In this document: positions 1,144 to 7,710 of the stretch, piece after piece
Layout of the letters: every line of letters starts with the position of its first letter
Numbering within the stretch: the stretch's first letter is position 1
Virus record (IMG/VR): IMGVR_UViG_2541047704_000003
Length of the DNA stretch: 44,162 nucleotides
Source: a virus
Lineage: Duplodnaviria; Heunggongvirae; Uroviricota; Caudoviricetes
Direction: 5' to 3' (one strand)
Made by a program: the position numbers and the translations under genes
The notes under the pieces: model-generated
What the model was told of the DNA's origin: nothing
The model's database searches: none
The model's input: the letters and a program-made list of their open reading frames with translations, nothing else

Positions 1144-1369
1144 CAGCGATTATCCGTTGGAGTTTTGGGTTTGCGTTTATTGGGAGTTGCGGTTCTGCAA
1201 GCGTTCCTACAAAACGGGAATTTCGGTCAATCATCCAGTAGCGACCAACTTTTATAGCGGGTGGGGCCATCATTTTCCCTTGCGCGTATTTTTTCAGAAC
1301 TCGCTCACTTGGTGCTAAGTCCCCAAATTCTTCTTTAGCCCAGTCCTGTAAAGTGATTAGTCGAGACAT
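1133..1369 (-). CDS. xis: excisionase
   Basis: 78-aa ORF immediately upstream of int and overlapping its start by 11 nt; assignment by position and size, sequence is not lambda-Xis-like. Confidence 0.6.
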   Translation of the reverse strand: MSRLITLQDWAKEEFGDLAPSERVLKKYAQGKMMAPPAIKVGRYWMIDRNSRFVGTLAEPQLPINANPKLQRIIADGC

Positions 1370-1508
1370 TTGTCCTCCTCTTAGCTGCTGAGGGAGTTTG
1401 TGACCGATATATCTGACATGATATTAAGCTCATGGCAGGTACATCTCTTGACTGGTCATAGAGATAAATTTAATGCTGAGAAATGCAGTATTGAATTTAT
1501 CAATTTTT

Positions 1509-1748
1509 CTATTTCCTGCGTATGGCACGTAACTTCTTAATGTGTTCTGCTGTTTCGATCTCTTCAGCTATCCGATCTGCGTCAGCTTTATTCACAGGTT
1601 CAAAGTCATGATTAAAGCGGAACATGCTGGCGATACATGTTCTGCCTTTTCGGATGTAGTGAACTTTGTTGTGAGTGGAACGCAGGATTTTGCAGGGAGT
1701 GCCGTGGTGGTCGACGTACCAGGTGTTAGGGTAAATCACTCTGAACAT
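1509..1748 (-). CDS. hypothetical protein (early-left accessory region)
   Basis: 79-aa ORF co-oriented with the leftward early operon; no family recognised. Confidence 0.35.
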   Translation of the reverse strand: MFRVIYPNTWYVDHHGTPCKILRSTHNKVHYIRKGRTCIASMFRFNHDFEPVNKADADRIAEEIETAEHIKKLRAIRRK

Positions 1749-1773
1749 TCTTGACCTTGTGTTGTGCGGATTG

Positions 1774-2142
1774 TTATTCAGTGCCGATATTTACCTTTAT
1801 CGCGTATACCTTTACCGGTTTATCACCGAAGTGCGGATGTGTGATTGTCTTCACTTCATATCCGTCATACGGAACATCAACTCTGCGGCTGGAATCGTCG
1901 CGCTTCGGATATCCCTTTGTGATAATCAGGCGGTCATGCTTACGGTTAACGAGGCGCTTTTTCCAGTAGTCATTACACAGGCGATACTCTTCCGTTTTCT
2001 CTCCGCGAATCATGGCATCGAAGTATTCACCTTTAACGGCAAGTTGCAGGTTAGCCACGGTTAACTCCTTGCTGTGTGGCGTCGAGTAATAAATCCCACA
2101 ACCGCTGAGAGCAATTTCCGCATGTACAGCGTTGACCCACAA
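1774..2142 (-). CDS. putative ASCH/PUA-like domain protein (start uncertain)
   Basis: 122-aa ORF; segment LQLAVKGEYFDAMIRGEKTEEYRL resembles the N-terminal signature of ASCH domains; overlaps the upstream ORF so the true start is probably internal. Confidence 0.4.
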   Translation of the reverse strand: MWVNAVHAEIALSGCGIYYSTPHSKELTVANLQLAVKGEYFDAMIRGEKTEEYRLCNDYWKKRLVNRKHDRLIITKGYPKRDDSSRRVDVPYDGYEVKTITHPHFGDKPVKVYAIKVNIGTE

Positions 2143-2791
2143 CGTTTATCGCGTTGCTGATTTCCGGCGTTACCTGTTTAGGAACCATAACCCAACCATC
2201 CGGAGTTACCGGAAGCGAGAACGGCAGCACATCTCTGTGAACAAGTTTTTGCTGTGACAGGTTATCCAGAACTTTCTGTACTGCTGCATCACCGAATACA
2301 CCAAGCGCATCTGCCATAACTCCTACAACCTGATAAGCCTCAGCGCATACCGTGGATAAACCATCCGGAATTACCGGAGAGTTGCCGGGTTCTTTAATGT
2401 GCAAGCGAGGCTCACCATCTTTTGGCTCAGGCCACTGGCGCTCCATGTTGATCTTCAATTTATCTTCCATAGCAACGGTAATTTCAGCATCGCTGATGCC
2501 AGCACGGCGCTGTGCATCCCACAACAGAAACTGCATATCAGCCCACTCGCTAAGATCGTCTGGTTCGGCTGCGGCTTCCAGTGCCTCTTTTGAGAGGTGT
2601 TTCAGTGGACCAATGGGGCCAACGCAGCCAAATGTGGAGTCAGACCATTTGGCATGCTCGTGGCGAATCTGTTCGCGTTCCAGTGATGCCAGTGCAATTC
2701 GTGCTAGTTCCATTTGTTCGCCACGAGTAAGCCCGTTTTCAAGCGGATTTTTAATGAACAATTCAATACGTTCTTTGGTAATAGTGGTCAT
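2051..2791 (-). CDS. hypothetical early-left accessory protein
   Basis: 246-aa ORF in operon orientation; contains NSPVIPDGL junction motif shared with neighbouring ORFs. Confidence 0.5.
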   Translation of the reverse strand: MTTITKERIELFIKNPLENGLTRGEQMELARIALASLEREQIRHEHAKWSDSTFGCVGPIGPLKHLSKEALEAAAEPDDLSEWADMQFLLWDAQRRAGISDAEITVAMEDKLKINMERQWPEPKDGEPRLHIKEPGNSPVIPDGLSTVCAEAYQVVGVMADALGVFGDAAVQKVLDNLSQQKLVHRDVLPFSLPVTPDGWVMVPKQVTPEISNAINVVGQRCTCGNCSQRLWDLLLDATQQGVNRG

Positions 2792-3039
2792 GTGTTAATC
2801 CTCAAAACTTTATGCCCGGGCGCAAAAGTACGTGTTTTGTCTTTGCTTATTCGCCACCCGTCTTTACGGGCCTCTTTTGCACAACCAGACCATGACGTAC
2901 CGATATACTCACCGAAGTCTGGCACTGGATATACACCTTCCGTACACTGGCGACAATCACAATAGAGATGCATGGTGTAACTTGCGGCAATAGCCATATC
3001 ACTCTCTTTTTCCCTGAAGCATGGCAGCGTGGCAGGCAT
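2788..3039 (-). CDS. hypothetical Cys-rich small protein
   Basis: 83-aa ORF with CDCRQC motif; 4-nt overlap with the downstream gene; no family recognised. Confidence 0.3.
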   Translation of the reverse strand: MPATLPCFREKESDMAIAASYTMHLYCDCRQCTEGVYPVPDFGEYIGTSWSGCAKEARKDGWRISKDKTRTFAPGHKVLRINT

Positions 3040-3607
3040 CCTCTACGCCCTTAACTGCATCTGCGCAGTAGTTATAGCGATTGCATTCCACTAACTTCTG
3101 CCTGAGATTTTCAATTGCTTGCGCGACATCAGCCTGTATTACAGGAACTGGCGGAACGGCTGTCTGCTGCTCTCGAACGTCATTAGTCGCTATCGGTTCT
3201 GCTGCCAACTGACTGGCATATTTGTTAATGGTAACGATAAGCTCTTGCTCAGCCTCATCCAGACAATCACCGATACCTCGCCTGTCGCCGTCAAAATCAT
3301 CGAAATCAGCACGAACTCTGGCAAATTTCAGGATTGCGGACAACACCTCACCAGGAATTACCGGAGAGTTGGTTGACGTTTCCGAAATTTCCCGAAAATT
3401 ATTGGTTGACGAATTCGCGTTTTCCCGAAAGTTTCCGGCATGAAGCATAGCCGCGCGGCAGGCGTTCCAGCCTCTCACCTCTGCAATAGCGGCAACAGCA
3501 TCGACCGCGTACATGCTAAGAGGGTTAGGCATTGGTTTTTCTTCAGGTACTACTGGCACTGGCTTGGCATATATAGCGGCTGAACATACCAACCCTTTGA
3601 TAACCAA
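2999..3607 (-). CDS. hypothetical early-left accessory protein
   Basis: 202-aa ORF; contains TNSPVIPGEV junction motif encoded by an 18-nt stretch identical to one in ORF 2051-2791. Confidence 0.4.
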   Translation of the reverse strand: MVIKGLVCSAAIYAKPVPVVPEEKPMPNPLSMYAVDAVAAIAEVRGWNACRAAMLHAGNFRENANSSTNNFREISETSTNSPVIPGEVLSAILKFARVRADFDDFDGDRRGIGDCLDEAEQELIVTINKYASQLAAEPIATNDVREQQTAVPPVPVIQADVAQAIENLRQKLVECNRYNYCADAVKGVEDACHAAMLQGKRE

Positions 3608-3825
3608 CTGTCAGCAATGTTTTTACTCCTCGTTATTGCCGGAATACCTAAGCCATTGTCTGAATGCAGCCATGCCACCGGATTCTCTTCCAGCGATGCC
3701 AGAGCAATTTCATAAGCCCGGCGCTCAACATTGTCTCGCACATCCAAACTGCTGATACGCTCTTTGATTTCTTTAATCAGTTCTTTGTCGGTAAAAGTGC
3801 TCATATCAATCTCCATTGGTATCAA
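3550..3825 (-). CDS. hypothetical protein
   Basis: 91-aa ORF in operon orientation; start possibly at internal MSTFTDKELIK. Confidence 0.35.
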   Translation of the reverse strand: MIPMEIDMSTFTDKELIKEIKERISSLDVRDNVERRAYEIALASLEENPVAWLHSDNGLGIPAITRSKNIADSWLSKGWYVQPLYMPSQCQ

Positions 3826-4570
3826 TGTTTACAGCCTGACAAGACTCTTTGAGCACCCAGTCAATAGCGTCTTTCCATGCCTCTGTTTCGACTGGTGGAT
3901 TTTCACGCTTAACCTGTTCATAGAAGCGCACTGCTTTAACCAGTCCTTCCGGTACTACTGGTGATGGCTGTTTAGCTTCTAAATCAGCAATTCTGTCAAC
4001 CACGGCATCGACAGCATCTGAAAAGCCGAACCAGTTGCTCCACTCCGGCTCATCCCCGGTTGCTGCAAAGTACATATCTGCTAAAGCAGATTCAGCATGG
4101 TCACGCTCGTTAATGAGTTGCTCTTCGCTTTTCTCCAGTTCAGCAATACGCTTACCCCCATCCGAGATAACACCTTCGTAATACTCACGCTGCTCGTTGA
4201 GTTTTGATTTTGTCTCCTCAAGCTCAACTCTCAGCTTCCCAACAGTAAGAGCAATATCCTCGTTCTCCTGGTCGCGGCGTTTTATGTATTGCTGGTTTCT
4301 TTCCCGTTCATCCAGCAGTGCCAGCACAGTAGCCGGATTGGCTGCGGCGATGAATTCAGCATTGGCCTGCTGTTCCATTTGGAAATCTTCATCGAAACCG
4401 CTTTCTGGATGCGCTCCTTCAATTCTGCAAATGGGAATATATCCAGCAACTTCACGATGAATTAGCGCATAATCACCATCAAATCGGCTCTCTCCATATT
4501 CGAGCGACCACTCACCACACGTTGCTTTTTCTGCCGCTTCACGCAGTGCCTGATAGTTAATTTCGCTCAC
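3806..4570 (-). CDS. Ea22-like coiled-coil protein
   Basis: 254-aa ORF with central charged coiled-coil-like region (LEETKSKLNEQREYYE...AELEKSEEQLINERD), in the ea22 position upstream of orf73-like gene. Confidence 0.45.
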   Translation of the reverse strand: MSEINYQALREAAEKATCGEWSLEYGESRFDGDYALIHREVAGYIPICRIEGAHPESGFDEDFQMEQQANAEFIAAANPATVLALLDERERNQQYIKRRDQENEDIALTVGKLRVELEETKSKLNEQREYYEGVISDGGKRIAELEKSEEQLINERDHAESALADMYFAATGDEPEWSNWFGFSDAVDAVVDRIADLEAKQPSPVVPEGLVKAVRFYEQVKRENPPVETEAWKDAIDWVLKESCQAVNIDTNGD

Positions 4571-4788
4571 TTCGAACCTCTCTGTTTACTGATAAGCTCC
4601 AGATCCTCCTGGCAACTTGCACAAGTCCGACAACCCTGAACGACCAGGCGTCTTCGTTCATCTATGGGATCGCCACACTCACAACAATGAGTGGCGGATA
4701 TAGTCTGGTAGTTCAGACGACGCATTTTTATTGCTGTATTGCGCTGTAATTCTTCAATTTCTGATGCTGAATCAATGATGTCCGCCAT
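4567..4788 (-). CDS. TraR/DksA-family C4 zinc-finger protein (lambda orf73-like)
   Basis: 73-aa ORF with CxxC...CxxC pattern (CCECGDPIDERRRLVVQGCRTCASC) typical of TraR/DksA zinc fingers; same size and position as lambda orf73. Confidence 0.65.
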   Translation of the reverse strand: MADIIDSASEIEELQRNTAIKMRRLNYQTISATHCCECGDPIDERRRLVVQGCRTCASCQEDLELISKQRGSK

Positions 4789-4886
4789 CTTTCATTAATC
4801 CCTGAATTGTTGGTTAATACGCTTGAGGGTGAATGCGAATAATAAAAAAGGAGCCTGTAGCTCCCTGATGATTTTGCTTTTCATGT

Positions 4887-5168
4887 TCACCGTTCCTTAA
4901 AGACGCCGTTTAACATGCCGATCGCCAGGCTTAAATGAGTCGGTGTGAATCCCATCAGCGTTACCGTTTCGCGGTGCTTCTTTAGTACGCTACGGCAAAT
5001 GTCATCGACGTTTTTATCCGGAAACTGCTGTCTGGCTTTTTTGATTTCAGAATTAGCCTGACGGGCAATGCTGCGAAGGGCGTTTTCTTGCTGAGGTGTC
5101 ACTGAACAAGCCCCATGTCGGCAAGCATAAGCACACAGAATATGAAGCCCGCTGCCAGAAAAATGCAT
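4887..5168 (-). CDS. lambda orf60a-like hypothetical protein (start uncertain)
   Basis: 93-aa ORF from track; C-terminal part matches my recollection of lambda orf60a; a small hydrophobic orf61-like peptide is encoded in another frame at its 5' end. Confidence 0.4.
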   Translation of the reverse strand: MHFSGSGLHILCAYACRHGACSVTPQQENALRSIARQANSEIKKARQQFPDKNVDDICRSVLKKHRETVTLMGFTPTHLSLAIGMLNGVFKER

Positions 5169-7505: not shown

Positions 7506-7638
7506 TTTTTGGGACTCCTGGCTGATTAAGTATGTCGATAAGGCGTTTCCATCCGTCACGTAATTTACGGGTGATTCGTTCAAGTAAAGATTCGGAAGGG
7601 CAGCCAGCAACAGGCCACCCTGCAATGGCATATTGCAT
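7474..7638 (-). CDS. cIII: CIII (FtsH inhibitor, protects CII)
   Basis: 54-codon ORF read by hand on minus strand: [54 protein letters not shown], matching lambda CIII; AAGGAG Shine-Dalgarno 6 nt upstream; below the 60-aa track cutoff. Confidence 0.7.
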   Translation of the reverse strand: MQYAIAGWPVAGCPSESLLERITRKLRDGWKRLIDILNQPGVPKNGSNNYGYPD

Positions 7639-7710
7639 GGTGTGCTCCTTATTTATACATAACGAAAAACGCCTCGAGTGAAGCGTAATTGGTATGCGGT
7701 AACGCCGCGC

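Follow-up and report, generated by a model that had tools for sequence, protein, structure and literature searches.

The DNA examined here is a phage genome of 44,162 nucleotides (IMG/VR record IMGVR_UViG_2541047704_000003), which we call the window and which is Escherichia phage PhiR57_1, coordinate for coordinate. Between xis and a TraR/orf73-like gene, its early-left operon carries a block of small accessory genes, among them genes for an Ea22-like and a DUF550 protein. Within this block we identified a short in-frame joint of ~27 nucleotides, centered on the peptide NSPVIP. We consider it likely that dozens of unrelated protein modules are reassorted at this joint, and that it is at once a proline-rich hinge between modules and a minimal patch of homology for frame-preserving recombination. 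Over positions 1300-4900, which include the block, the window matches both Escherichia phage ev017 (NC_049948) and PhiR57_1 (PV340572, from E. coli ECOR13) with 100% identity.

A nucleotide-conserved joint within coding sequence

The window has two exact copies of the 18-mer GGAATTACCGGAGAGTTG, one at 2367-2384 and the other at 3354-3371. No further match was found in the window at up to three mismatches, and two or more matches occurred in none of 100 dinucleotide shuffles. Identity between the copies extends to 21 of 23 nucleotides (2362-2384 versus 3349-3371). Read on the minus strand, AAC TCT CCG GTA ATT CC encodes NSPVIP in frame in both genes, giving NSPVIPDGL in a 246-amino acid protein (2051-2791) and NSPVIPGEV in the protein encoded at 2999-3532. 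A sequence-only reading of this region had pointed to these two copies and to a related PSPVVPEGL in an Ea22-like protein (3806-4570); sequence scanning and translation confirmed the former and located the latter at 3946-3969. The first copy, GGC AAC TCT CCG GTA ATT CCG GAT GGT (G-NSPVIP-DG; 2360-2386, minus strand), lies between the DUF550 domain and a middle module of the 246-amino acid protein. The second, (T)NSPVIPG (3349-3371, minus strand), follows a low-complexity spacer in the protein encoded at 2999-3532. This spacer, just upstream of the second copy, consists of two tandem 33-nucleotide units on the minus strand (NFRENANSSTN and NFREISETSTN; 3369-3400 and 3402-3433; 78% identity). 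Different low-complexity spacers occupy the same place in other phages (...AENAESRCG...KNAESRCG and ...PVSQTYKLNELSG).

Scans of IMG/VR with the exact 18-mer and with a codon-degenerate pattern yielded at least 120 stretches each, and the figures given below are among the matches listed. The exact 18-mer was present in at least 120 IMG/VR contigs and, far from being absent in related prophages, the joint is carried by hundreds of lambda-like prophages. In most listed instances an open reading frame (ORF) runs through the motif, the exceptions being one non-coding context and a few copies that look frameshifted or truncated. Clustering the 150 nucleotides on each side of 111 listed instances at 70% identity gave 44 upstream and 44 downstream clusters in 76 combinations. 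Fifteen upstream clusters had two to five downstream partners, and 20 downstream clusters had two to five upstream partners. Pooled with the second search, 191 listed instances fell into 73 upstream and 72 downstream clusters in 143 combinations.

The conservation of nucleotides ends where the flanks begin. With one representative per combination, it was confined to about -3 to +26 and fell to background on either side, defining a conserved block of ~27-30 nucleotides, GGC AAC TCT CCG GT(A/G) ATT CCG GAT GGT TGG, that encodes G-N-S-P-V-I-P-D-G-W. In 46 of the 62 comparisons of cluster pairs that shared an upstream module and differed downstream, divergence started between +17 and +27; when they shared a downstream module and differed upstream, it started at -2 to -11 in 46 of 49. 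The joint is therefore the same short sequence between unrelated flanks in many genomes, and breakpoints of similarity coincide with it.

Because this first sample had been chosen on its DNA sequence, we searched again with a codon-degenerate pattern for NSPVIPDGW (AAYTCNCCNGTNATHCCNGAYGGNTGG), which required the peptide with a TCN serine. The 123 listed matches formed 66 upstream and 66 downstream clusters in 104 distinct flank combinations. Codon choice within the joint was nearly uniform across these combinations: AAC in 101, TCT in 103, CCG in 102, ATT in 97, the second CCG in 99, GAT in 103 and GGT in 97. The valine codon was the only common polymorphism (GTG in 61 and GTA in 41 of the 104). 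As a control we used SERMP, a neighboring conserved peptide, whose third positions were more variable, with majorities of 54-71% for three codons. Among clusters with at least three listed instances, GTA and GTG were mixed in 8 of 17 upstream and 6 of 21 downstream clusters, which fits crossovers on both sides of the site, with recurrent mutation as the alternative. The joints thus appear identical by descent at the DNA level and the flanks are unrelated; therefore exchange would have taken place at the block or immediately beside it.

Protein family boundaries fall at the same place. The 246-amino acid protein is composed, in order, of a leader helix, an IALASLE joint, DUF550, the NSPVIP joint, a helical middle module, a PVTPDGW joint and a Cys-containing C-terminal module. 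Its DUF550 assignment is firm (PF04447; 141.8 bits against a cut-off of 23; E 8.2e-42; residues 42-137, covering profile positions 1-96 of 97), and the match stops at residue 137, with which the motif opens. PHROG profiles match the protein in parts, which stop at residues 134-138 or start from 145. Over the first 82% of its length, as far as PVTPDGW, identity to most of its best homologues is 98-99%, and past that point these homologues carry various DUF551 (PF04448) or other modules; most homologues have DUF551 after either the PVTPDGW or an NSPVIPDGW joint, and no ORF of the window matched PF04448 in the Pfam profile scan. By profile, one module is thus a DUF550 nucleotide pyrophosphohydrolase domain, its activity predicted. 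A search of PDB sequences returned no relative of the DUF550 protein. A DUF5664-DUF550 protein of an Acinetobacter phage has dATP/dGTP pyrophosphohydrolase activity (PMC12884076). An AlphaFold2 model of the 246-amino acid protein, made from a 23-row alignment of close homologues, was poor (mean pLDDT 40.9, pTM 0.24), and we rejected it as proof of domain boundaries and as input for fold searches; its assignment of coil to residues 120-144 and 181-208 lends weak support. These combinations, the breakpoints at the edges of the block and the Pfam and PHROG boundaries strongly support the earlier suggestion that the motif is a conserved linker where shuffling of N- and C-terminal modules takes place.

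Other short repeats in the block show a similar pattern. In local BLAST of the region against loci fetched for comparison, ends of high-scoring segment pairs piled up at gene boundaries, at 2358-2363 and at the positions that follow; the same joint coordinates recur as ends of matching pieces in separate BLAST searches of phage and E. coli genomes. A third, related copy, LPVTPDGW (2197-2219, minus strand; repeat family, 74% identity), lies in the 246-amino acid protein, with segment ends nearby at 2190-2213 and at query position 893 (window 2192). Two PVVPE-type joints, both on the minus strand and 83% identical, are KPVPVVPEE (3541-3564), upstream of a module that begins MPNPLS, and QPSPVVPEG (3946-3969), which in the Ea22-like protein separates the Ead/Ea22 region and coiled coil from a C-terminal module. 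Segments end at 3558-3563 at the former, where the homologues P0124 and P0128 swap modules, and at 3948-3953 at the latter, with a query end at 2650 (window 3949); there phrog_250 spans residues 1-203 and phrog_660 residues 195-252. ACHAAMLQ (3015-3037, minus strand) stands at the C-terminus of the protein encoded at 2999-3532 and is 87% identical to ACRAAMLH (3441-3463, minus strand), which closes the MPNPLS...GWNACRAAML module. Segment ends cluster at 3006-3011 for the first (query starts 1712-1716, window 3011-3015) and at 3438-3443 for the second (query start 2144, window 3443). Lastly, IALASLE occurs on the minus strand at 2678-2699, between the N-terminal leader helix and DUF550, and at 3688-3709 in an 84-amino acid ORF (query start 2384, window 3683), the two being 91% identical. 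At the former, segments end at 2676-2681 (query start 1379, window 2678), and the alignment shows N-terminal variants joined there.

In the fetched loci, IALASLE had 28 x 40 flank clusters, C[RH]AAML[QH] 32 x 28 and PVVP[DE][EG] 17 x 10. IALASLE, AC[R/H]AAML and PVVPE likewise mark mosaic breakpoints. Because short in-frame joints with clustered segment ends and many flanks recur along it, the block from 2051 to 4570 reads as a string of cassettes. A more ambitious interpretation is that IALASLE, PVVPE, ACRAAMLQ and GNSPVIPDGW form a small 'splice code' of nucleotide-conserved in-frame joints that is kept for cassette reassortment; we regard this as a tentative idea that is probably too strong.

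The joint is widespread. The block, counted at 28 or more of 30 nucleotides exact, is present in 420 (GTA) and 45 (GTG) of 5426 complete E. coli genomes. A 23-mer version was found in 23 DNA stretches (22 coding and one spacer in an array of clustered regularly interspaced short palindromic repeats, CRISPR) from 20 species, nearly all Enterobacterales, with genera including Trabulsiella, Enterobacter, Brenneria, Hafnia, Shimwellia, Scandinavium, 'Ca. Erwinia dacicola', Pseudocitrobacter and Intestinirhabdus. At least 8% of complete E. coli genomes have the joint, as do 15 or more further enterobacterial species. GTA is commoner in complete E. coli genomes (420 versus 45), whereas GTG is commoner in IMG/VR (61 versus 41 combinations) and in non-Escherichia genera, and the two alleles may track host genus. 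In the fetched loci the joint holds the same operon position as in the window: upstream of it the recognizable neighbors are Ea22-N, TraR, exo and bet, and downstream of it ASCH, xis and int. Three of these (Ea22-N, ASCH and xis) always share the strand of the motif; int and TraR do so almost without exception, and for exo and bet this holds in 11 of 18 loci.

Several occurrences lie outside ordinary prophages. Plasmids of ~60-200 kb carry parts of the block or the joint (e.g., NZ_CP103660.1, NZ_CP074704.1 and NZ_CP075059.1), accounting for 859 of 12142 places where the region matched and for 18 of 442 where the joint did. Because such plasmids are annotated with Ead/Ea22, DUF551 and DUF4014 genes, phage-plasmids probably share the cassette pool. 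On contig CACSKA010000005.1, labelled Chryseobacterium sp. 18061, the translation of a DUF550-joint-module gene differs from that of Scandinavium hiltneri at 2 of 116 residues; instead of a transfer to Bacteroidota, it probably reflects an assembly that was mislabelled or contaminated. The spacer occurs in Shimwellia pseudoproteus DSM 3038 (NZ_WBXP01000006; L219:5401-5432), where the match is a 32-nucleotide non-gene sequence, AACTCTCCGGTAATTCCGGATGGTTGGATACC, in an array with a 28-nucleotide repeat, TTTCTAAGCTGCCTGTACGGCAGTGAAC, and a 60-nucleotide period. The array looks like type I-F. Since the joint matches a spacer in a CRISPR array, the host would seem to have acquired immunity against an invariant phage sequence. 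The protospacer in 'DGWIPV' contexts would precede GG, which we take to fit a CC protospacer-adjacent motif on the other strand.

Proposed mechanism and alternative explanations

The joint peptide could serve as a short Pro-rich interdomain hinge between exchangeable modules. It lies in the multi-module accessory proteins encoded between exo and xis of lambdoid phages (the 'ea' region), including the Ea22, EaA, DUF550 and DUF551 types. Because the same block stands in frame between unrelated sequences, it would provide a patch of homology near the minimal length for recombination, and might be a substrate for phage Rad52-type recombinases (Red-beta, RecT, Erf) or for RecA. A crossover inside the block between co-resident phages or prophages would swap one side whole and keep the frame, and repeated crossovers would produce the combinatorial architectures observed. 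The genes exo and bet lie a few genes upstream of the joint in the same pL operon. The minimum for Red-beta recombination is ~30 bp, and Rad52-like phage recombinases far outdo RecA on short or diverged homologies during lambda growth and drive lambdoid mosaicism (PMC3945230). We infer the flexibility of the peptide, the autonomy of the modules and crossover by homologous recombination.

Several points weigh against this proposal. The evidence is wholly comparative, and 27-30 nucleotides is at the lower limit for efficient homologous recombination. Because the motif was used to find the loci, the sample favors conservation of the block to some degree by design; at synonymous sites the degenerate search alone is free of this bias. 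IMG/VR contigs are redundant and non-independent, and the clustering used simple identity and k-mer thresholds. Near-fixed synonymous sites could stem from recent common descent together with selection acting on the protein or the RNA. In several downstream domains 'DGW' probably forms the first strand, and the downstream module may therefore include the 3' part of the block. Finally, with the structural model so poor, a 'flexible hinge' would rest on composition and profile boundaries.

The strongest competing explanation, which we nonetheless think unlikely, is that the block is a 5' handle carried by the cassettes that follow it, such as DUF551 and the 'WVMVPKEPT...MLAAAP' module. It would then mark where a domain begins, not where crossovers occur, with illegitimate joints upstream and selection for frame. 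Phage mosaicism has an established model of this kind, Hendrix-type illegitimate recombination with subsequent selection. Consistent with a handle, 'DGW' runs straight into the conserved starts WISCSERMP and WVMVPKEPT, and the GTA/GTG alleles track downstream modules (15 pure and 6 mixed clusters) more than upstream modules (9 pure and 8 mixed). However, GNSPVIP also precedes the unrelated modules GEVLSAIL..., DGLSTVCAE..., DCWCRTCRP... and EGSRASIEL..., the allele is mixed within those six downstream clusters, and DUF551 modules also stand behind PVTPDGW and IIPGWIPVSERMP joints. Random illegitimate joints would also be expected to scatter, whereas the upstream breakpoints lie within 2-11 nucleotides of the block in 46 of 49 comparisons.

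Slightly less probable still is a function at the protein level only, such as a docking, cleavage or oligomerization signal, with nucleotide identity a by-product of recent ancestry. The peptide is invariant across genera, and Pro-rich short linear motifs often bind partner proteins. Such a function leaves unexplained the use of TCT in 103 and CCG in 102 of 104 flank combinations, and identity by descent between unrelated flanks itself needs exchange at or beside the block; moreover, three joints with other peptides behave alike.

We give very little credence to the joint as the target of a dedicated site-specific or nucleic-acid system (a shufflon- or integron-like site, an RNA element or a protein-binding site). 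Its strict nucleotide conservation is unusual, and it contains an interrupted palindrome, CCGG-N5-CCGG, seen as a 5-bp hairpin in the terminator scan. The stem is only 4-5 bp, however, and the GEV variant lacks it. Every copy is a direct repeat read in a single coding orientation, with no inverted copy in the region, and the only recombination genes nearby are those for Int, Xis and Red (Exo and Bet). Rfam has no match in the region, and the RNA-element reading was dropped because its only match in the window is a cIII thermoregulator. The joint was also considered as a terminator and rejected as one, the promoter/terminator scan giving a weak 5-bp hairpin at one copy only.

That the two 18-mers of the window are a coincidence or a local duplication is next to impossible: only 18-23 nucleotides are common to them and short two-copy repeats often arise by chance, but the shuffles yielded no such pair, hundreds of phages carry the same sequence between different flanks, and segmental duplication is contradicted by the unrelated flanks of the two copies.

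The early-left block and its other genes

The ORF list and the deposited annotations of ev017 and PhiR57_1 agree, and place all genes of the block on the minus strand. The annotations and the gene neighborhood of the fetched loci bear out its early-left location in the non-essential exo-xis region, and the at least six co-oriented ORFs reported between xis and the orf73-like gene number seven. Downstream of them lie xis (1133-1369) and int (1-1143). The seven are a DUF4222 protein of 79 amino acids (1509-1748; PF13973, E 6.4e-19); a 94-amino acid ORF with a GTG start (1774-2058; phrog_625), named 'ASCH domain-containing' in RefSeq; the modular DUF550 protein (2051-2791), recognized by Pfam, partial PHROG matches and alignment of homologues; a 69-amino acid Cys-rich ORF (2788-2997; phrog_926); a 177-amino acid product starting MPNPLS (2999-3532, or from 3514 with 171 amino acids in PhiR57_1; phrog_14306, E 4.6e-110); an 84-amino acid ORF (3550-3804), the upstream part of a split gene; and an Ead/Ea22-like protein of 254 amino acids with a GTG start (3806-4570; PF13935, E 4e-40). 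The TraR/orf73-like gene (4567-4788) follows, and beyond it orf61-, orf63- and orf60a-like genes and then exo, bet and gam. All of these, from int to gam, are on the minus strand. Genes in the block are tightly packed, with stops and starts that overlap or adjoin.

The sequence-only reading had called these ORFs unassigned. This stands for some of them; in domain searches of each ORF, three proved to match families above Pfam cut-offs, namely DUF4222, dATP-dGTP_PPHyd (DUF550) and Ead_Ea22, the last with 138.1 bits against a cut-off of 27 over residues 2-146. The proposed ASCH-like protein has the RefSeq product name in its favor, but its PF04266 match falls below the cut-off (15.5 bits against 21.2) and covers only profile positions 1-39 of 103; a search of PDB sequences gave only non-significant matches. 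The seven accessory ORFs had no match in NCBIfam or PADLOC scans, and a defence or anti-defence assignment therefore gains no support from them. A role of the block in host takeover or anti-defence is plausible by position and would be a guess. Ea22 has a published phenotype, a bias towards lysogeny (PMC7093339), and over-expression of yfdQRST of CPS-53 inhibits replication initiation (PMC4776307). We found no published anti-defence role for Ea22, yfdQRST or DUF550 relatives in the literature searched.

A single gene, split by a 1-nucleotide deletion in a TATATA run at about 3568-3572 (frameshift region 3550-3607), accounts for both the 84-amino acid ORF and the ORF at 2999-3532. A reading of the downstream half from a TTG start extends to 3607, and the 90%-identity cluster of this product (P0123) has 57 member sequences. 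Intact relatives (L069 and P0128) have one extra base and read ...WYVQPLYIAKPVPVVP... / PLYIAKPVPVVP. An identical split is present in the independently deposited ev017 and PhiR57_1. Programmed -1 frameshifting was considered and rejected; because the shift site, CCG CTA TAT ATG CC, has no slippery heptamer of the form X XXY YYZ, the split is probably a tolerated mutation. Some relatives (P0125) have the 69-amino acid ORF joined in frame to the gene upstream of it, and modules seem to work whether fused or separate.

Several further features of the region were noted. The Shine-Dalgarno sequence of the next gene lies inside the last codons of several genes (2997-3012, 3804-3818, 2058-2072 and 2791-2805), as in GGA AAA AGA GAG TGA T ATG, AAT GGA GAT TGA T ATG and CAA GGA GTT AAC CGT GGC TAA, the last with a GTG start inside. 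This overlap may explain recurrent C-terminal tails (K/R-G-E, EVKGE and VNRG), which have been reported as a '+GE' motif, conserved and of unknown significance (PMC7093339). A 16-bp AT-rich inverted repeat with a 7-nucleotide loop (1463-1501) lies in the 139 nucleotides that separate xis from the DUF4222 gene. The region's best terminator-like hairpin (4848-4866, minus strand; 8-bp stem; AGGGAGCTACAGGCTCCTT then TTTTATTATT) lies between the orf61-like and TraR/orf73-like genes, within the pL operon, and is presumably read through under N antitermination. The lambda cIII thermoregulator (RF01804, 88.5 bits; 7593-7651, minus strand), the sole Rfam match in the window, is expected in a lambda-like early-left operon. 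In E. coli C25 (NZ_CP127314.1, 3375905-3380758), an otherwise identical block is interrupted by the IS3-family element ISEc52 and so appears as two pieces (4.85 kb against 3.6 kb).

Relation to known systems and significance

Mosaicism in these proteins has been described before. Ea22 genes are mosaic and DUF551 is a 'portable domain' (PMC10834534); unrelated C-terminal domains stand behind a common Ea22 N-terminal and coiled-coil part (PMC7093339, PMC8614690), and DUF551 occurs in many contexts, including YfdS and DUF550 proteins (PMC10834534, PMC7093339, PMC8614690). This published mosaicism, from lambda and Shiga toxin (Stx) phages, concerns the same region and the same set of proteins as the window. 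It was described at the level of protein blocks, whereas the nucleotide-conserved joint and its combinatorial flanks come from the present analysis. The word 'linker' occurs 0 times in the searched text of PMC7093339 and PMC10834534. Strings of the joint peptide (NSPVIP, PVIPDGW and similar) turned up in one unrelated paper and in none of the lambdoid or phage literature searched. An in-frame nucleotide-conserved joint was not found in the searched literature, which mostly excludes subscription journals, so an earlier description is possible. Mosaic Ea22 and portable DUF551 were thus already known, and the nucleotide-conserved joint itself is apparently new.

The idea of short exchange sequences at module boundaries is old. 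Susskind and Botstein in 1978 are said to have placed lambdoid 'linkers' in the modular theory, and Clark et al. in 2001 reportedly described boundary 'linker' sequences in modular phage evolution for HK620. In T4-type phages, conserved boundary sequences between genes mediate the exchange of PeSL cassettes (PMC2839356). Like the boundary sequences of the modular theory, the joint is a short sequence at the boundary of unrelated modules, proposed as a site of homologous exchange. Those sequences are intergenic (gene ends, promoters and stem-loops), whereas the joint lies inside coding sequence, is read in one frame, encodes a hinge-like peptide and would swap protein domains, not genes.

Two other systems offer partial parallels. 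In polymorphic toxins, a conserved peptide and its DNA (VENN in CdiA, PxxxxDPxGL in Rhs) precede a hypervariable C-terminal module and are thought to give homology for its replacement. The likeness to the joint is in mechanism only: Pfam, NCBIfam and PADLOC scans found no toxin or immunity families in the block, and the block gives no sign of toxin-immunity pairs, secretion signals or orphan cassettes, its modules being those of small cytoplasmic phage proteins with several joints serially in one protein. In the shufflon of R64, the tyrosine recombinase Rci acts on inverted sfx repeats to place alternative C-termini on a constant part within one genome. The shufflon and the joint both use short repeats in coding sequence that join alternative segments, but the repeats here are direct, come without a dedicated recombinase and vary between genomes, and the joint is not a shufflon by these features.

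Genes yfdQ-yfdR-yfdS-yfdT of CPS-53 in E. coli K-12 form a homologous 'ea'-type cluster, in which the start of yfdT matches window positions 3683-3804 and YfdS has DUF551. Its published phenotype, in which YfdR binds DnaA and thereby inhibits replication initiation, needs yfdQ and yfdR (PMC4776307). Homologues of yfdQ and yfdR were not identified in the block, the sequences not having been compared directly, and the phenotype is therefore not transferable to the cluster of the window.

Whether phage mosaics arise by homologous exchange at linkers or by illegitimate joining and selection has been debated for decades, and the formation of ~70% of recent lambdoid mosaics has been left open (PMC3945230). 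The joint offers a compact and very widespread case, with a ~27-nucleotide block apparently exactly at the point where dozens of modules are exchanged. It also explains the confused annotation and clustering of Ea22, EaA, DUF550 and DUF551 proteins (PHROGs lists 14-21 partial families per protein in the block of the window), for which function should be assigned per module, not per ORF.

The sequence of the joint is an invariant one that many lambdoid prophages, Stx prophages among them, have in common. If the more ambitious 'splice code' interpretation is correct, this would be a clear natural case in which new proteins are made by homologous rather than illegitimate recombination, and its invariance would make it something for host CRISPR spacers to target. 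For the phages themselves, it would provide standing combinatorial diversification of early host-interaction proteins, by a logic like that of toxin-tip exchange in CdiA and Rhs.

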